A DNA stretch of 64,000 nt, taken from NCBI GenBank assembly GCA_964520505.1, contig CAZFQP010000002.1, positions 26,804 through 90,803 on the forward strand. The letters run 5' to 3'. The notes under the pieces were generated by a model, which worked only from the letters and a program-made list of their open reading frames with translations, was not told the origin of the DNA and ran no database searches. Positions 3,371-61,353 of the stretch are shown here, in pieces (the stretch's first letter is position 1; each line of letters starts with the position of its first letter). This stretch comes from an uncultured Candidatus Saccharibacteria bacterium (GTDB taxonomy: Bacteria > Patescibacteriota > Doudnabacteria > UBA920). A program made the translations under genes and the position numbers.

Positions 3371-3721
3371 TTAACCAGCCCAATAGTTTGGCCCCGAACT
3401 CCAGACGTTGAATAAAAATACAAATAAAACGATACCTGCTAAATAAAATCCCCAATAATATATAAGCTTTAAAGTTCTTTCGCCATCATTTGAATTTAAA
3501 CCTAAGCGCCACTGGTAGAAAAGCCCGAAGGCAATAGATATAATCAATCCTGAAACTAAAAACCCAAACACTTTAAAATTTAATAATTCAGCCAAAGGAC
3601 TACTAATAGAAGAGAGAAACACTGCCAATATCATAGCAAATAAAATAGAGGCAACTCCGCCAAATAATCCAACAAAAAACCCATTTACGCTGGCACTGAT
3701 TTTAGAAACGCTTCCAGACAT
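3371..3721 (-). CDS. hypothetical membrane protein
   Basis: 116 aa, 3 predicted TM helices. Confidence 0.4.
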   Translation of the reverse strand: MSGSVSKISASVNGFFVGLFGGVASILFAMILAVFLSSISSPLAELLNFKVFGFLVSGLIISIAFGLFYQWRLGLNSNDGERTLKLIYYWGFYLAGIVLFVFLFNVWSSGPNYWAG

Positions 3722-3745: not shown

Positions 3746-4549
3746 TCAATTAGAAATTTCTTGGTAGAGTTTTGTTATTGCCGTGGCTTTGCCACCGGTT
3801 GATGTTTCTACAAGTGTGCCGTTGATTTGCAAAACCCCTTCTTCTTCCAATTCATTTACAAACTTGCCTTGTTCCAAAAACTTTTTTAAAACATTTTCCG
3901 GTTTAACGCCGATTACTCCGTTTAAAGCGCCGGTCATACCCGTGTCGGTAATATAGGCAGTGGCCTTAGCTAAAATTCTGGCATCGGCTGTTGGGACATG
4001 GGTGTGAGTGCCGGTTAAAAAACTCACTCGGCCGTCCAAATAATAACCCATGGCAACTTTTTCGCTGGTCGCTTCCGCGTGGAAGTCCACAATTATTATA
4101 TCACCTTTTTGCGCTTCCTGCGCTAACAGTTTATCAATAGCCAAAAACGGGTTAGCAATTTCACCGTCAAACTGATTTTCCATAAAAACCTGGCCGTTGA
4201 GGTTAACAACCAAGAATTGATTACCCTGTTTGGCAAAACGATAGTAGCCAAACCCGGGAAATTGGCCAACAAAATTGGCCGGACGGATTAGTTTAGGATA
4301 TTTTTCAAAACATTCCGCTGAAAGATGATGTTTGTTGAATATATGATTGCCGGAAGTAAAACAGTCTATGCCTAAATTATCAATATCCGCCAAAGTAGAC
4401 GGCGTCACTCCTTTTCCGTGGGCTAAATTTTCCACATTCACGATTACCGCATCTGGCTGATACTCACTTTGCCATTGCGGCAAGACCTCACGCAATATTT
4501 TGCGCCCCGGTTTCCCTACTACATCGCCGATGAAAAGTATTTTTGCCAA
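3746..4549 (-). CDS. ymdB: YmdB-family metallophosphoesterase (2',3'-cyclic-nucleotide 2'-phosphodiesterase)
   Basis: 267 aa; N-terminal 'ILFIGDVVGKPGR...NVEN..HG' calcineurin-like motifs of the TIGR00282/YmdB family; TTG start; lies immediately downstream of rny as in Bacillus. Confidence 0.8.
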   Translation of the reverse strand: MAKILFIGDVVGKPGRKILREVLPQWQSEYQPDAVIVNVENLAHGKGVTPSTLADIDNLGIDCFTSGNHIFNKHHLSAECFEKYPKLIRPANFVGQFPGFGYYRFAKQGNQFLVVNLNGQVFMENQFDGEIANPFLAIDKLLAQEAQKGDIIIVDFHAEATSEKVAMGYYLDGRVSFLTGTHTHVPTADARILAKATAYITDTGMTGALNGVIGVKPENVLKKFLEQGKFVNELEEEGVLQINGTLVETSTGGKATAITKLYQEISN

Positions 4550-4643
4550 TTTATAATCCTAATGTTCCGAATTAATATCCTAATGTTCCGAATGGGCCCA
4601 TTTGGGGCATTTGGATTGCAGTTTTGGATTATTCGGATTATGT

Positions 4644-28225: not shown

Positions 28226-29311
28226 ATGAGCTTTCAAATCGGCATCGTCGGCCTGCCTAATGTCGGCAAATCAACCCTATTTAATGCCATTACCAAAAGT
28301 AAGGTAGAAGCAGCCAACTACCCTTTTGCCACTATCGATCCTAATGTGGGAGTAGTCGCCGTGCCGGACGAACGCCTGGCCAAACTGGCAAAGTTAGAAA
28401 ATAGCGAAAAAATCGTCCCGACTACCATTGAATTTGTAGATATTGCCGGGTTGGTTAAAGGCGCCTCTACCGGCGAAGGTTTGGGTAATAAATTTTTAAG
28501 CCACATTCGCGAAGTGGACGCGATTTTGGAAGTGGTGCGCGTATTTGAAAATAAAGATATTATTCACGTAAACGGCTCGGTAGACCCGTCGCGCGATATG
28601 GAAACCATTGCCATAGAACTCCAACTGGCCGACCTGCAAAATGTGAATAATCGCCTAACAACCATAAACAAACAGGTAAAAAGCGGCGACCGAGACGCAA
28701 TTGTAAAAAAACAAGTTTTGGAAAAATATAAAGTGGCTTTGGAAAAAGGCGAAATGGCCGGCACTGTGCAGTTGACCGATGAAGAAAAAGAACACAGCAA
28801 AGAAATAATTTTGTTGACCAACAAACCGATGATGTATGTGGTAAACGACGAATTTAATTTGGAACAAAAAAAATTCGCGTCGGAAATTTCAAATTCTAAA
28901 TTTCAAATTTCAAATCCAATACCAATCGACGCAAAAATAGAAAGCGAACTGTCGGAACTGGACGACGCCGAAAGAGCGGATTATCTTAAAGAACTTGGAC
29001 TGCCCGAGTCAGGCTTAGACAAAATTATTAAACAAGCCTACAAAACTTTGGGACTAATTACCTTTATTACCGCCGGACCAAAAGAGTCCAAAGCCTGGAC
29101 CTGCCCGGCTGGTTTTAAGGCGCCTCAGGCCGCAGGAAAAATTCATACAGATTTTGAAAAAGGATTCATTCGCGCCGAAGTTATTCAATGGGATAAACTC
29201 CTGGAAGCCGGTGGTTACGGTGAAGCCAGAAATAAAGGCTGGCTTAGAACCGAAGGGAAAAATTACACCATCCAAGACGGCGACGTCGTCCACTTCCTGT
29301 TCAATGTGTAG
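28226..29311 (+). CDS. ychF: ribosome-binding ATPase YchF (Obg-family GTPase-like)
   Basis: 361 aa; 'GIVGLPNVGKSTLFNA' P-loop, TGS-like C-terminus 'KIHTDFEKGFIRAEV'; contains an in-frame AAATTTC heptamer array (encoding SEISNSKFQISN). Confidence 0.9.
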   Translation: MSFQIGIVGLPNVGKSTLFNAITKSKVEAANYPFATIDPNVGVVAVPDERLAKLAKLENSEKIVPTTIEFVDIAGLVKGASTGEGLGNKFLSHIREVDAILEVVRVFENKDIIHVNGSVDPSRDMETIAIELQLADLQNVNNRLTTINKQVKSGDRDAIVKKQVLEKYKVALEKGEMAGTVQLTDEEKEHSKEIILLTNKPMMYVVNDEFNLEQKKFASEISNSKFQISNPIPIDAKIESELSELDDAERADYLKELGLPESGLDKIIKQAYKTLGLITFITAGPKESKAWTCPAGFKAPQAAGKIHTDFEKGFIRAEVIQWDKLLEAGGYGEARNKGWLRTEGKNYTIQDGDVVHFLFNV

Positions 29312-29315
29312 TTTT

Positions 29316-29354
29316 CCCTCTCCCTGGACGGGAGAGGGATTAAGGGTGAGGGTG
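29316..29354. repeat. GC-rich hairpin repeat (left terminal inverted repeat of the DUF559 cassette; also the ychF terminator hairpin)
   Basis: CCCTCTCCC-TGGAC-GGGAGAGGG then ...GGGTGAGGGTG; reverse complement ~80% identical to 29696-29733. Confidence 0.6.
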
Positions 29355-29356
29355 AT

Positions 29357-29695
29357 ATGCAAAATAAAACACTCATTCCAATCGCTAGAAAACTTCGTAA
29401 ACAAAAAACCCCTGAAGAAGCTAATCTTTGGCAACTTTTGCGTTCCCGACGATTTCTAGGTTATAAATTTAGACGCCAATTTCCAGTTGATAAATATGTA
29501 GCAGATTTTGTCTGCCTCTCAAAAAGATTAATTATTGAATTGGATGGCGGACAACATAATAAAAACCCTAACGATGCAACTCGAGACGAATATCTACAAA
29601 AACAAGGATTTAGAATCCTGCGAATTTGGAATAATGATTTAAATATAAATAAAGAATCTGTCTTAGATAAAATTTTTTATACTTTGAACGAATAG
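29357..29695 (+). CDS. DUF559 (Vsr/MTES-like endonuclease fold) domain protein
   Basis: 112 aa; 'ANLWQLLRSRRFLGYKFRRQFPV..YVADFVC...IIELDGGQH' typical DUF559; AT-rich relative to its flanks. Confidence 0.75.
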   Translation: MQNKTLIPIARKLRKQKTPEEANLWQLLRSRRFLGYKFRRQFPVDKYVADFVCLSKRLIIELDGGQHNKNPNDATRDEYLQKQGFRILRIWNNDLNINKESVLDKIFYTLNE

Positions 29696-29733
29696 CACCC
29701 TCATCCCTGCCCTTCTCCCGTCCAGGGAGAAGG
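29696..29733. repeat. GC-rich hairpin repeat (right terminal inverted repeat of the DUF559 cassette)
   Basis: CACCCTCATCC-CTGC-CCTTCTCCC-GTCCA-GGGAGAAGG; shares the CACCCTCATCC 11-mer with 56720 upstream of tsaD. Confidence 0.6.
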
Positions 29734-29807
29734 ATGGGGCAAAAAACAAAAGACTCTTCCGAACATGGGAAGAGTCTCTTTTGAAAGCGCGCGAAACATT
29801 GCGCGGA

Positions 29808-56638: not shown

Positions 56639-56765
56639 TCATAAAAAAAATAAAGTAATTCTCGCCAAGCCCTCTCTTCCCCTCGCTCCTGCTCGGGGCA
56701 CTCTCTCCCGCAAAACACCCTCATCCGGCCTACGGCCACCTTCCCCCAAAGGGGGGAAGGAAAAA

Positions 56766-57923
56766 ATGAATGGTCTTTTGGGAGAGAGGAAAAAAGTGAT
56801 TCTCGCTATTGAGACTTCCTGCGACGAGACCGCGGCGGCGGTTTTGGAAATAATCCCTCACCCTACTCTCTCCCGCAAGGGGCGAGGAGGGAATGCGCAG
56901 TGGCCGGAAATTGCCACCTTGTCTTCTGTTGTCAGATCGCAAATTAAACTGCATAGCAAAATGGGCGGCGTAGTGCCGGAAGTTGCCGCCAGGGCGCACG
57001 TAAAAAATATCCGCCCCGTGGTGGAAGCCGCTCTCAAAGCTAGCAGCTATAAACTAGAAGCTATAAGCTATATCGCCGTTACCGCCGGCCCCGGACTAAT
57101 TCCGTCTTTAATTGTTGGCGTTGAATTTGCCAAAGCACTTTCTCTGGCCACCGGTATTCCGCTCTTACCCACTAACCATATGCTAGGACACCTATACTCG
57201 CCTTTTGGGCGAGTAAAATCCAAAATCCAAATTTCCAATGACGAATCACACCCAGAAGGCTGCCTTCTGGGGCAGCCCCAGAAGGCAGCCTTCTTTCCAA
57301 TGATTGCTTTAATCGTTAGTGGCGGACACACGATGATTGTGTTAATGGAAAACGAAAAAAACTATCGGGTGCTTGGACAAACCGTAGACGACGCGGCAGG
57401 TGAAGCATTTGATAAAGTTGCCAAGCTCCTTGGCCTCCCCTACCCCGGCGGGCCGGAAGTTTCAAGGCTGGCTTTGTCCGGCAACCCGGAAGCCATAAAA
57501 TTTCCCCGTCCAATGCTAAATAATAAAAATTATAACTTTTCCTTCTCCGGCCTAAAAACCGCCGTACTGTACTATGTAAAAGATAAGGGATTAGGGATAA
57601 AGGATAAAAATATTGTCAACGATATTTGCGCCTCTTTCCAAGCCGCTGCAGTAGACGTGCTGGTGCAAAAAACTATGCGCGCTGCCAAAGAATTTAAAGC
57701 TAAATCTGTTTCCCTGTCCGGCGGCGTTTCCGCCAATCGCCTCCTGAGAAGTGAACTAGAAGCTATGAGCTATAAACTAAAAGCTAATTTTTTCGTTCCC
57801 CCATTTAACCTTTGTACCGACAACGCGGAAATGATAGGCATAGCCGCGGCCTTTGCCCTGCATAACGGCAAAAAACCAGTGCCTTATAAAAAGGTTAAGG
57901 CGGACAGCAATATGGAATTGTAA
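56766..57923 (+). CDS. tsaD: tRNA N6-adenosine threonylcarbamoyltransferase TsaD (Kae1/Gcp family)
   Basis: ~385 aa from the ATG at 56766 preceded by GGGGGGAAGG. It has 'ILAIETSCDETAAAV', metal-binding 'HMLGH' and 'AGGV' motifs. There are two insertions relative to E. coli TsaD, one of which is a 41-nt perfect palindrome. The ORF-track start at 56622 overlaps the upstream gene and reads through GC-rich repeats, so it is probably not real. Confidence 0.85.
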   Translation: MNGLLGERKKVILAIETSCDETAAAVLEIIPHPTLSRKGRGGNAQWPEIATLSSVVRSQIKLHSKMGGVVPEVAARAHVKNIRPVVEAALKASSYKLEAISYIAVTAGPGLIPSLIVGVEFAKALSLATGIPLLPTNHMLGHLYSPFGRVKSKIQISNDESHPEGCLLGQPQKAAFFPMIALIVSGGHTMIVLMENEKNYRVLGQTVDDAAGEAFDKVAKLLGLPYPGGPEVSRLALSGNPEAIKFPRPMLNNKNYNFSFSGLKTAVLYYVKDKGLGIKDKNIVNDICASFQAAAVDVLVQKTMRAAKEFKAKSVSLSGGVSANRLLRSELEAMSYKLKANFFVPPFNLCTDNAEMIGIAAAFALHNGKKPVPYKKVKADSNMEL

Positions 57924-59121: not shown

Positions 59122-61353
59122 ATGGACTTACCAAAAGCCTACGACCACTCCCAAGTGGAAGATAATATTTACCAAACCTGGTTGGATAGCGGTTATTTTA
59201 ATCCGGACAAATTGCCGGAAAGCGAAAGCCGCGAACCTTTTACCATTTCCCTACCGCCTCCTAATGTAACCGGGGTGCTGCATCTTGGCCACGCATTTGA
59301 AGACACCATTCAAGACACTGTTATTAGATATCAAAGAATGAATGGCAAACGCGCGCTTTGGGTTCCGGGGACTGACCACGCGGCCATTGCGACTCAGGCT
59401 AAATTTGAAAAAGAACACTATAAAAAAGAGGGTAAATCTAGGCACGAATACTCCCGCGAAGATTTTTTCAAGATGATTCAAACTTTTGCCTTAGAAAACC
59501 AAAAAAATATTTTGTCGCAACTGCGCAAGCTTGGACTGTCTATGGACTGGAGCCGCCTGGCTTTTACCTTAGACCAAAACCGGGAACTGGCCGTGAGAAC
59601 GGCATTTAAAGAAATGTTTGACTCCGGGCTTATTTATAGAGGAGACCGGGTGGTTAATTGGGATCCAAAAGGCCAAACCACAGTTTCAGACGACGAAATT
59701 GAATATGAGGAAAATAAAACTAAGCTATACACTTTTCGCTATGCTAAAAATTTCCCCATAGCAATTTCCACAACCAGGCCGGAAACCAAAGTCGGCGACA
59801 CCGCCGTGGCAGTTCACCCCGAAGATGAAAGGTACAAAAAATTTATAGGACAAGAGTTTGACTTGGAATTTTGCGGCACCCCCTTGCATATAATAATCGT
59901 TGCAGACAAAGAAGTAGACCCGGCGTTTGGCACCGGCGCGCTTGGCGTCACCCCGGCCCATAGCGCGGTTGACTATGAAATCGCCCAAAGACATAATTTA
60001 CCGCTAAAAACAGTTATAAACGAATTCGCCAAAATGACTGTAAAAAGCGAGCTGTTGCAGGGCAAAAAAACCTCCGAGGCCAGGCTGATTGTGGCTGACT
60101 GGCTAAGACAACAAGGCTTGATGGAAAAAGAAGAAGACACCACACAAAACCTTTCCAAAGCACAACGCACAGGTGGAGTTATTGAGCCCCTGCCAAAACT
60201 GCAGTGGTTTATTAACGTAAATAAAAAATTTAAAGCCAAAGGAAATAAACTTACAGGCATAAAAGACGGCGAAGAAATAACCCTAAAAGAGTTGATGGTT
60301 CGCGTAGTCAAAAACAAACAGATAGAAATCATGCCGGAAAGGTTTGAAAAAATATACTACCACTGGATTGATAACCTGCGCGATTGGTGTATTTCCAGAC
60401 AAATAATTTATGGGCATCAAATTCCGGTTTGGTATCGCCCTGCCCCTTCCTCCCCTTCTGAGGGGAGGACACAGGAGAGGTCGAACGAAATTTATTGCAA
60501 TATTACTCCCCCAAAAGAAGAGGGGTGGACTCAAGACACCGACACACTGGATACCTGGTTTTCCAGTGGACTGTGGACTTTTTCTACTTTGGGCTGGCCA
60601 AACCAAACCGAAGATTTTAAAATGTTCCACCCGACTTCCGTTATGATGCCGGGCTATGAAATTTTATTTTTCTGGGTCGCGCGTATGATTCTAATGAGCG
60701 GCTTTTTGCTTGGCGATATACCTTTTCATAAAGTTTATTTGCATGGCATTGTTCGCGACAAACAAGGCAGAAAATTCAGCAAGTCCTTAAATAACGGCGT
60801 TGACCCTTTGGAAATGATATCCAAATACGGCACGGACGCGCTAAGGTTCGCATTAGTTTTTGGGGCAGCCCCGGGCAATGACGTTATGTTTGATGAACAA
60901 AAAATCAAAGGTATGAAGCATTTTGCCAACAAGCTTTGGAATATATCGCGTTATATTCTTATGAACATAACAATTTCAAATTCCCAATTTCAAATTTCAA
61001 ATTTGGAGCCACAAACTCAGGCAGATACGGAAATTTTGGCAAAGTTGGAAGCTACCATAAAATCTGTCACCAAAAATTTGGACAGCTATAATTTACACGA
61101 GGCAGCGCAGGAAATTTACCAATTCACCTGGCGCGAGTTTGCGGATATTTATTTGGAAGCTTCTAAAGCGCAGCTTAACAACGAAGAACAAAAAGCTAAC
61201 ACTCAGACCATCTTAACCCATTCGCTGATTCAAATTCTAAAATTGCTCCACCCCTTTATGCCGTTTATTACCGAACATATTTGGGGTCTAATGCAAGAGC
61301 AAGGGCTATTAGATAAAAATGATCTGCTAATAATTTCTAACTGGCCTAAATAA
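59122..61353 (+). CDS. valS: valine--tRNA ligase (short form lacking the long C-terminal coiled coil)
   Basis: 743 aa; 'PPPNVTGVLHLGHAF' HIGH and 'KFSKSLNN' KMSKS; ValRS-type editing-domain and anticodon-binding regions; contains an AAATTTC heptamer array and a GC hairpin in-frame. Confidence 0.85.
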   Translation: MDLPKAYDHSQVEDNIYQTWLDSGYFNPDKLPESESREPFTISLPPPNVTGVLHLGHAFEDTIQDTVIRYQRMNGKRALWVPGTDHAAIATQAKFEKEHYKKEGKSRHEYSREDFFKMIQTFALENQKNILSQLRKLGLSMDWSRLAFTLDQNRELAVRTAFKEMFDSGLIYRGDRVVNWDPKGQTTVSDDEIEYEENKTKLYTFRYAKNFPIAISTTRPETKVGDTAVAVHPEDERYKKFIGQEFDLEFCGTPLHIIIVADKEVDPAFGTGALGVTPAHSAVDYEIAQRHNLPLKTVINEFAKMTVKSELLQGKKTSEARLIVADWLRQQGLMEKEEDTTQNLSKAQRTGGVIEPLPKLQWFINVNKKFKAKGNKLTGIKDGEEITLKELMVRVVKNKQIEIMPERFEKIYYHWIDNLRDWCISRQIIYGHQIPVWYRPAPSSPSEGRTQERSNEIYCNITPPKEEGWTQDTDTLDTWFSSGLWTFSTLGWPNQTEDFKMFHPTSVMMPGYEILFFWVARMILMSGFLLGDIPFHKVYLHGIVRDKQGRKFSKSLNNGVDPLEMISKYGTDALRFALVFGAAPGNDVMFDEQKIKGMKHFANKLWNISRYILMNITISNSQFQISNLEPQTQADTEILAKLEATIKSVTKNLDSYNLHEAAQEIYQFTWREFADIYLEASKAQLNNEEQKANTQTILTHSLIQILKLLHPFMPFITEHIWGLMQEQGLLDKNDLLIISNWPK

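Follow-up and report, generated by a model that had tools for sequence, protein, structure and literature searches.

Inverted BoxC/PIT/TM repeats frame a YcjD-type DUF559 nuclease gene in Candidatus Doudnabacteria and accompany this gene subfamily across bacterial phyla

The window examined here, 64,000 nucleotides (nt) of contig CAZFQP010000002.1 (assembly GCA_964520505.1), comes from an uncultured bacterium that YchF matches place in Candidatus Doudnabacteria, within Patescibacteria. At 29316-29733 it holds a compact three-part unit: a TM repeat, a gene for a nuclease of the DUF559 family, and a second TM repeat in inverted orientation. The flanks are two non-identical copies of the already described BoxC/PIT/TM intrastrand-triplex repeat, and the association of this repeat with the YcjD-type DUF559 subfamily is tight, oriented and cross-phylum. 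By analogy, repeat and nuclease may form a partnership like that of the REPIN-RAYT system, of repetitive extragenic palindromic (REP) repeats and REP-associated tyrosine transposases (RAYTs), rather than a recently mobile cassette, an interpretation on which we find the case evenly poised. A shade more tentatively, we put forward the wider proposal that YcjD-type DUF559 nucleases are the missing partner enzymes of BoxC/PIT/TM repeats in a widespread system reaching from E. coli to the Candidate Phyla Radiation (CPR), with recognition of a triplex or hairpin and with gene-less doublets as non-autonomous offspring.

The unit and the gene that precedes it are arranged as follows (aa, amino acids).

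29316-29354, plus strand: left repeat unit (TM, "type A"), from sequence, repeat search, triplex-unit finder and fold
29357-29695, plus strand: DUF559 gene, 112 aa, YcjD-type Vsr-like PD-(D/E)XK nuclease (Pfam PF04480)
29696-29734, minus strand: right repeat unit (TM, "type B"), inverted, from sequence, repeat search and triplex-unit finder
28226-29311, plus strand: ychF, the context gene (Pfam YchF-GTPase_C and MMR_HSR1)

The order is thus ychF stop codon, TTTT, left unit with TGAT, ATG, 112 codons, TAG and right unit, with 4 nt between the ychF stop codon and the left repeat. A promoter scan of the locus found no promoter-like site between the two genes, which are probably transcribed together. 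An earlier note on this DNA, made from the letters and their open reading frames (ORFs), had called the enclosed gene AT-rich, and the GC content of its ORF is indeed 0.32, versus 0.43 for the window. The label TonB_C that it gave to the 124-aa ORF downstream is unsupported, because that ORF gives no Pfam match. A scan of the whole window against Rfam at gathering thresholds returned two tRNAs only, and the flanks match no family.

The left flank consists of a pyrimidine arm (29316-29324, CCCTCTCCC), a loop (29325-29329, TGGAC), a purine arm (29330-29338, GGGAGAGGG), a spacer (29339-29343, ATTAA) and a G-rich box in mirror orientation, the G-box (29344-29352, GGGTGAGGG), and closes with TG. 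This G-box occupies the position of a ribosome-binding site (GAGGG, 4 nt, ATG). On the plus strand the right flank (29696-29733) reads CACCCTCATCC-CTGC-CCTTCTCCC-GTCCA-GGGAGAAGG, its box complement CACCCTCATCC abutting the TAG stop of the DUF559 gene; on the minus strand the unit is CCTTCTCCC-TGGAC-GGGAGAAGG-GCAG-GGATGAGGG-TG, where the G-box GGATGAGGG mirrors GGGAGAAGG except for a single A to T change. The repeat search pairs the flanks through two inverted arms, one of 24 nt at 92% and the other of 15 nt at 87%. When the left flank is aligned by hand with the reverse complement of the right one, 32/39 positions (82%) agree, close to the figure of about 80% in the earlier note; the hairpin that it saw inside each flank is perfect in both, at 9-10 bp. 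The loops TGGAC and GTCCA are reverse-complementary, and the flanks are therefore true inverted copies and not merely two palindromes. As single-stranded DNA the left flank folds at -11.2 kcal/mol (z = -4.0). The pattern CCYTCTCCC-N5-GGGAGARGG, with at most two mismatches allowed, matches only the two flanks in the 64 kb and nothing in 100 shuffles.

GC-rich hairpins between convergent genes might also be ordinary intrinsic terminators unique to this locus, the counter-case that the earlier note itself had named. Neither hairpin is followed by a T-run, the left unit sits upstream of the gene, and the window has other copies, as have at least 120 metagenome contigs (exact 23-mer GGGAGAGGGATTAAGGGTGAGGG), so that the counter-case falls away and we give it next to no credence. 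The terminator scan lists neither flank; what it lists is a separate hairpin:

29748-29780, no strand assigned: terminator-like hairpin, separate from the repeat, with a 13-bp stem and A- and T-runs on either side, between convergent genes

The repeat has been named BoxC (in the 1990s), PIT elements (Hoyne et al. 2000) and TM_ECO (Holder et al. 2015, PMC4666352), and it has also been described as a G-quadruplex-hairpin-duplex switch, HPG1/HPG2 (bioRxiv 10.1101/032615). The TM_ECO consensus, CCCTCNCCC-N3-6-GGGNGAGGG-N3-GGGNGAGGG, has a class II triplex layout of C-rich arm, loop of 3-6 nt, G arm, loop and G arm; 23 copies were counted in MG1655 and 3610 in 262 proteobacterial genomes, their location is always intergenic, and MG1655 has five inverted pairs, each made of a subtype A and a subtype B (PMC4666352). 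According to the same paper, the function of the repeat is unassigned and the flanking genes show no consistent function. The window flanks share with these elements the three-part layout, near-identical core words (CCCTCTCCC, GGGAGAGGG, GGGTGAGGG), the intergenic location, the inverted pairing of two subtypes and four G3 runs. Both have a perfect 9-bp stem with a 5-nt loop, and in both a second G-rich arm follows in mirror register, as antiparallel G*GC, A*AT and T*AT triads would need (GGGAGAGGG then GGGTGAGGG; GGGAGAAGG then GGATGAGGG). They do not fit the strict TM_ECO consensus, since the second loop or spacer, 3 nt in the consensus, is 5 nt (ATTAA) on the left and 4 nt on the right, and the right arm GGGAGAAGG departs from GGGNGAGGG; both fall under the broader ITxF definition (loops 1-6, stems 6-15). 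They differ further in that TM_ECO was tallied in proteobacteria only, whereas the host of the window belongs to Patescibacteria, and in that the window pair encloses a gene.

We used 80 loci encoding related proteins, one genome per GTDB species, from Alpha-, Beta- and Gammaproteobacteria, Melainabacteria, Bacteroidota, Firmicutes, Omnitrophota, Helicobacter, Legionella, Chloroflexota, Deinococcus, Elusimicrobia and Binatia; the counts cover 83 distinct loci (1.21 Mb), individual loci being cited below by number (L001 and so on). The finder called a unit where 8-nt pyrimidine and purine arms enclose a loop and an 8-nt mirror box follows after a spacer, tolerating no more than a single mismatch over the whole unit. 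Other DUF559 genes turn out to be flanked in the same way, a point that the earlier note had proposed to check: 75 of the 83 loci have a unit within 200 nt of the gene. At this distance a sense unit lies upstream in 60 loci, with a median of 10 nt from the end of its box to codon 1, an inverted unit lies downstream in 43, mostly starting within about 15 nt of the domain end, and 34 loci have both. Repeat density is 3.86 per kb near the DUF559 gene versus 0.077 per kb in the far flanks, an enrichment of about 50-fold. The usual orientation points the G-box toward the gene on both sides (upstream, 68 sense versus 24 antisense units; downstream, 46 inverted versus 19 direct). The two ends of a cassette are non-identical in 33 of 34 cases, like the A and B pairs of E. 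coli. In the window type A is on the left and type B on the right; the reverse arrangement occurs in L221 (3670-3745 and 4075-4140) and L002 (2940-3000 and 3325-3370), which suggests exchange or inversion of the ends, or else separate arrivals at one ychF site.

Could such an association be passive, with unstable, recombination-prone repeats accumulating or capturing DNA between genes and the DUF559 gene as a frequent passenger? The repeat loci of E. coli are hypervariable (PMC4666352), and the ycjD locus is a replacement hotspot where the gene alternates with eefRABCD, both of which would suit this explanation. We nonetheless hold it to be highly improbable, given the 50-fold enrichment with fixed orientation and spacing in many phyla, the strong purifying selection on repeats and gene at the window locus, and the fact that no other gene family was seen framed in the place of the DUF559 gene in the 83 loci. 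The association is apparently unreported: in the openly accessible literature we found no link of the repeat to DUF559, YcjD or any endonuclease (subscription-only papers, such as Hoyne & Maher 2002, lay outside the search).

The flanking repeats have also entered protein databases. Many DUF559 proteins of 145-196 aa (P0016-P0039, P0109 and others) carry extensions, N-terminal "PSPSPLAGEG..." or "PSPLAGEG..." and C-terminal "...NPSPARGEGL", "...NPSPARGEG" or "...PPLPNPSPARGEGL". These are flanking repeats translated by read-through gene calls, a systematic annotation artefact, and the practical consequence is that the N- and C-terminal extensions of many database entries of this family are false.

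Almost everywhere near DUF559 genes the units keep one layout: a pyrimidine arm, a short loop, a complementary purine arm, a spacer either of 2-3 nt or of 10-28 nt, the latter often with its own small hairpin, and a G-box that mirrors the purine arm with A or T facing A. Examples, written as purine arm and G-box, are GGGAGAAGG and GGATGAGGG, GGGGGAGGG and GGGTGGGGG, GGGGGAAGG and GGATGGGGG, GGAGGGGG and GGGGGTGG, and AGGGAGAGAG and GAGAGAGGGT. Of the distinct asymmetric purine arms followed by a box, 193 in all, 126 are better described by the mirror model and 14 by the direct-repeat model, with 53 ties; the mirror mismatches total 56, compared with 245 +/- 9 when arms are permuted against boxes. 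This test rules out the G-box as a direct repeat or as an alternative Watson-Crick partner of the pyrimidine arm. For an intramolecular antiparallel purine-motif triplex on one strand, the layout needed is just this one, with a purine repeat in mirror order after a pyrimidine/purine hairpin. A mirror box accompanies 159 of the 176 hairpins near DUF559 genes and a canonical G-quadruplex motif 98 of them, 62 being mirror-only and one quadruplex-only, and the mirror symmetry is thus more constant than the quadruplex potential. We have set the quadruplex aside as the main constraint on these grounds; for the two window units it may still apply, since both satisfy the canonical quadruplex pattern.

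The mirror box also bears on whether the flanks might be cis-acting expression elements only, the left one a 5' leader with ribosome-binding site and the right one a 3' stabiliser of the mRNA or an insulator, while the nuclease has an unrelated job (repair, or restriction-like defence). REP-type hairpins are known to stabilise upstream mRNA. The hairpins here are stable, the G-box before codon 1 resembles a Shine-Dalgarno sequence, and the gene, probably co-transcribed with ychF, has no promoter of its own. We judge this explanation decidedly unlikely. The covariation of the mirror repeat is a signature of DNA triplexes, and purine-motif triplexes are not formed in RNA, as PMC4666352 states from its ref. 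43; the downstream unit is inverted, so that the mRNA bears its C-rich complement and not the same structure; PIT elements are without promoter or terminator activity, again as PMC4666352 relates it from its ref. 41; and the explanation leaves about 94% of the copies, which are gene-less, and the subtypes that they share with the flanking copies, unaccounted for.

Most copies of the repeat are indeed gene-less singles, or inverted doublets that resemble the cassette minus its gene. In a metagenome scan of 82 copies, five had a DUF559 gene within 700 nt and 65 had none, the contig end being too near in the remaining 12. Convergent gene-less doublets, with units 24-43 nt apart, occur in the far flanks of DUF559 loci, and the doublet of L057 has two repeat subtypes identical to those of the cassette ends. 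In 37 of 78 cases a dispersed copy has the same purine-arm type as the copies that flank the gene of its locus, versus 17 +/- 4.6 after permutation. Nearly all genes of the subfamily have repeats and few repeats have a gene, and the pattern is therefore that of RAYT genes and REP/REPIN sequences.

In E. coli, 3376 of 5426 complete genomes carry ycjD, the member of the subfamily in that species, and in the others eefRABCD occupies the sapF-fabI site; phylogroups A, B1 and C carry ycjD, and B2, D, E and F carry eefRABCD instead (PMC12817139). Just downstream of ycjD there are a degenerate hairpin at the stop codon, a duplicated 3' end of the gene and, about 170 nt away, TM_ECO no. 9. In K-12 (L090; NC_000913.3, 1351140-1351410) a duplicate of the last 50 nt or so of ycjD is followed by a decayed repeat and then by the intact TM_ECO no. 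9; this arrangement is a footprint of past recombination at the 3' end of ycjD. We counted the places matched by a query of ycjD plus TM_ECO no. 9 (mostly repeat copies) in an evenly spaced sample of 59 chromosomes. The median is 21 (range 14-32, n = 37) with ycjD versus 7 (1-17, n = 22) without it (Mann-Whitney p = 5e-10), a correlation that tracks the phylogroups, therefore comprises few independent events and is suggestive only. A TM doublet between hrpB and mrcB, cassette-like in layout with a 16-nt centre (L097, 240-335, compared with L219), is found in 3536 of the 5426 genomes; elsewhere the site is about 102 nt shorter, and no target-site duplication is seen at the junctions of the doublet.

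The window protein matches Pfam DUF559 (PF04480) with E = 5.6e-39 and 132.8 bits, against a cut-off of 20.6. Its score with NCBIfam PRK09767, 108.8 bits, is under the cut-off of 218, and it is therefore a member of the DUF559 family and not the equivalog of E. coli YcjD. Profile searches match PDB 3HRL (N. gonorrhoeae NGO0050, "endonuclease-like protein"; E = 1.6e-35) and, weakly, the homing endonuclease I-Bth0305I (3R3P; E = 0.096). An AlphaFold2 model (mean predicted local distance difference test, pLDDT, 90.6) has its best fold match in 3HRL (TM-score 0.71/0.84); next in Foldseek come the catalytic domain of I-Bth0305I (3R3P, E = 4e-5) and the mismatch nickase Vsr (1VSR, E = 5e-3). Residues D50, E61, D63, Q66 and H67 are invariant in 15 sequences. 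Sequence and model thus agree on a Vsr-like, or homing-endonuclease-like, nuclease with intact predicted catalytic residues, under purifying selection. A DUF559-fold domain is also found in several mitoribosomal large-subunit proteins of Toxoplasma and Tetrahymena (Foldseek 9i05, 9g6k and 6z1p; TM-score about 0.65 on the query). Carriage by plasmids or phages was considered and set aside, the subfamily being rare on both (46 of 72,556 plasmid records, mostly megaplasmids, with some entries chromosome-sized; 2 of 50,697 phages), as was membership in a defence system, for which PADLOC gives only weak matches to nuclease domains of large proteins.

Downstream of ychF, five further lineages of Doudnabacteria have the gene between its two flanks, intact in four and interrupted in one, with YchF 77-89% identical to that of the window; the order ychF-DUF559 occurs in L001, L092-L096 and L221. 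The lineages compared, with YchF identity to the window, are these.

L095/L096: YchF 89%; DUF559 gene present, interrupted by an insertion of about 200 nt (DNA of L095 read; both have a 92-aa gene call)
L092/L093: YchF 88%; DUF559 gene present
L094: YchF 86%; DUF559 gene present
L001: YchF 83-84%; DUF559 gene present
L221: YchF 77%; DUF559 gene present
L091: YchF 90%; DUF559 gene absent
L220: YchF 82%; DUF559 gene absent

L091, which branches as the sister of the window within the gene-bearing clade of the YchF tree, has therefore lost the DUF559 gene. Its remnant, TTTCCCTCCCCC-TGCCTGCCCACCGAAGTTAGATAAG-GAAGAAGGGG, resembles a single long-loop repeat hairpin as in the left unit of L221, and it keeps an equivalent of the hairpin at 29748-29780. 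L091 was tried as a clean empty site and rejected, since what it has is a degenerate repeat scar and the tree indicates loss. In L220 an unrelated long palindrome, about 80 nt in length (3585-3665, TCGTCATTGCGAG...CTCGCAATGACGA), occupies the spacer downstream of ychF and may belong to another repeat family. The empty ychF junction that the earlier note proposed to look for in relatives thus has no clean instance, and both L091 and L220 are losses of the unit. In L095 the DUF559 ortholog is split at about 4420-4640 by the insertion, which has inverted ends (GTGTGTCATTCCCGA... and ...GGGATGACACAC) and looks like an unrelated miniature inverted-repeat transposable element (MITE); the right repeat of L095 has a 29-nt insertion in the loop, with the arms intact.

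The window locus was compared with L001, L092 and L094. The repeats are 95-100% identical (the right unit 97-100%), the DUF559 gene is 80-86% identical in the more distant pairs and 93% between L092 and L094, and for the same distant pairs the 3' end of ychF is at 74-79% and the downstream intergenic DNA at 42-57%. The synonymous distance (dS) is 0.86-1.14 in distant pairs and 0.31 for L092/L094, with a ratio of nonsynonymous to synonymous distance (dN/dS) of 0.06-0.14. Repeats at such identity alongside near-saturated dS, together with this dN/dS, mean that protein and repeats are under selection, or that the repeats are kept alike by conversion against other copies. The unit already stood downstream of ychF before the sampled lineages of Doudnabacteria split, and it is vertically inherited. 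The outer flanks of the cassette, GTAGTTTT|...|ATGGGGCA in the window and AGAAATCT|...|GGATTTTA in L001, show no direct repeat that would be a target-site duplication.

These observations give no support to the mobile cassette candidate of the earlier note as a currently mobile unit: synteny in five further lineages is ancient, dN/dS is low, target-site duplication is absent, and L091, which lacks the gene, is nested in the gene-bearing clade and shows a scar. More generally, the TM-DUF559-TM unit might be an autonomous selfish element that moves as a whole, in the manner of a homing endonuclease or a minimal transposon, with the repeats as terminal inverted repeats or homology arms and the doublets as MITE-like derivatives or homing targets. 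The layout is compact, the inverted ends abut start and stop codons, and the closest functionally characterised fold is the catalytic domain of a homing endonuclease; the doublets resemble the cassette minus the gene, and E. coli genomes either have the whole doublet between hrpB and mrcB (3536 of them) or lack all of it. The cassette is found in unrelated gene neighbourhoods across phyla, and the GC content of the gene differs from that of its surroundings. Even so, an autonomous element appears somewhat unlikely to us. The unit at the window locus is ancient and syntenic, with a divergence about that of ychF; no target-site duplication and no clean empty site go with it; the window has one copy of the gene and no second; doublets are left without a gene in genomes that do have a copy of it; plasmids and phages rarely carry the subfamily; and to our knowledge no transposase chemistry has been described for a Vsr-like nuclease of 112 aa.

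In the repeat-nuclease partnership that we prefer, the nuclease would be the cognate enzyme of the repeat, as the RAYT transposase is for REP/REPIN sequences. It would recognise the folded repeat, as a hairpin or triplex in transiently single-stranded DNA, and nick it, and nicking might promote the copying, conversion or maintenance of repeat doublets. The gene would persist mostly in single copy, vertically inherited and flanked by its own substrate, and at the window locus the left G-box would also serve as its ribosome-binding site. Since the triplexes form in DNA and not in RNA, and since the downstream G-rich strand lies on the opposite strand, recognition of structure would most likely take place on transient single-stranded DNA at both ends, and not on mRNA.

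Several points weigh against this partnership. The action of any DUF559 protein on the repeat, be it binding or cutting, is inferred. The isolated strand of TM_ECO forms a triplex in vitro, and the triplex was undetected in duplex DNA or in vivo (PMC4666352). The left G-box doubles as a ribosome-binding site, which makes a purely cis-regulatory role of the flanks possible. Only about 6% of the repeat copies in the metagenome scan adjoin the gene, and repeats remain in the E. coli lineages that lack ycjD, at 1-17 matched places. The E. coli copy-number correlation is real and confounded by phylogeny, so that its message is suggestive, and the 83 DUF559 loci are phylogenetically non-independent. 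Finally, neither a target-site duplication nor a clean empty site was found in the window, L001, L091 or the E. coli doublet.

Three further places of the window contain the repeat or something like it.

56716-56760, minus strand: gene-less solo repeat unit upstream of tsaD (repeat search; fold z = -3.7)
56855-56891, minus strand: degenerate repeat relic within the tsaD coding sequence, in frame (from sequence)
60448-60481, plus strand: repeat-like unit within a 743-aa ORF (59122-61353), in frame (repeat-unit scan)

The earlier note had seen an 11-mer of the right flank recur with a similar hairpin near tsaD. The 11-mer, CACCCTCATCC, is at 56716-56726, followed by CCTTCCCCC-AAAG-GGGGGAAGG at 56739-56760, and together they make up a complete unit, which on the minus strand is CCTTCCCCC-CTTT-GGGGGAAGG-T-GGCCGTAGGCC-G-GATGAGGGTG; the small hairpin within its spacer has the same architecture as in L024, L080 and L221. 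Its suggestion of a dispersed repeat family is borne out by these further copies in the window and by those in very many genomes. Beside the solo unit, at 56660-56715, there is a pyrimidine mirror repeat, CCCTCTCTTCCCC...CACTCTCTCCC, with no matching hairpin arm, which could be a decayed unit or a plain mirror repeat of the H-DNA type. The relic within tsaD (ORF start at about 56766-56796) is inverted and degenerate, CCCTCACCC-TA-CTCTCTCCC-GCAA-GGGGCGAGGAGGG, and codes for some of the 18 inserted residues ("IIPHPTLSRKGRGGNAQWPE") that the solved TsaD structure 8IEY lacks. Rickettsia palindromic elements insert into coding genes, and the in-frame relic is reminiscent of them. The unit at 60448-60481, TCCTCCCCT-TCTG-AGGGGAGGA-CAC-AGGAGAGGT, may be a second in-frame insertion; the 743-aa ORF around it ("...IPVWYRPAPSSPSEGRTQERS...") is a candidate class I aminoacyl-tRNA-synthetase-like protein, as read by eye without a family search.

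The window feature adds to known families in a phylum where neither the repeat nor the gene had been discussed. BoxC/PIT/TM repeats have been known since the 1990s, in thousands of copies in bacterial genomes, and have been tied to local genome instability, with no function, origin or enzyme assigned to them; DUF559 is a very large nuclease family of "unknown function" that includes E. coli YcjD. If the partnership is true, both puzzles could be tested directly and together in E. coli, and there would be a second repeat-nuclease partnership beside REPIN-RAYT, with a different chemistry and with a natural DNA triplex as its recognition element.

Among known systems, insertion sequences and MITEs resemble the unit in that inverted ends of about 39 nt, 82% identical, frame one small gene, and in that short gene-less two-end derivatives exist; they differ in that the cassette is without target-site duplication, a recognised transposase family or multiple identical copies, and shows long-term synteny at one locus. 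I-Bth0305I (EDxHD, 3R3P) and Vsr (1VSR/1CW0) share the catalytic fold and the conserved acidic and histidine residues, the sequence relationship of I-Bth0305I to the window protein being weak; the DUF559 gene, however, lies outside any intron, intein or conserved host gene and has no extra DNA-binding domain. Homing genes are polymorphic, with an intact empty target in relatives, whereas the relatives of the window show no clean empty target site: the scar of L091 is nested in the gene-bearing clade, and the palindrome of L220 is unrelated. The likeness to REPIN-RAYT is closer. In both, a chromosomal nuclease gene, mostly single-copy and vertical (here one copy in the window, syntenic in six lineages with YchF down to 77%), stands between inverted copies of a hairpin repeat that is dispersed in the genome; most repeats are gene-less singles or inverted doublets; lineages without the gene have fewer repeats; and the gene is rare on plasmids and phages. 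The Pfam matches of the window protein at E of 0.01 or better are DUF559, REase_MTES_1575 and a weak, sub-threshold NOMO_6th, with no match to Y1_Tnp, and the DUF559 unit is therefore an analogue and not a member of REPIN-RAYT. The enzyme there is a transposase of the HUH/Y1 kind and here a Vsr-like PD-(D/E)XK nuclease, in a putative partnership, and the repeat linked to DUF559 has a third element, the mirror repeat of the putative triplex.

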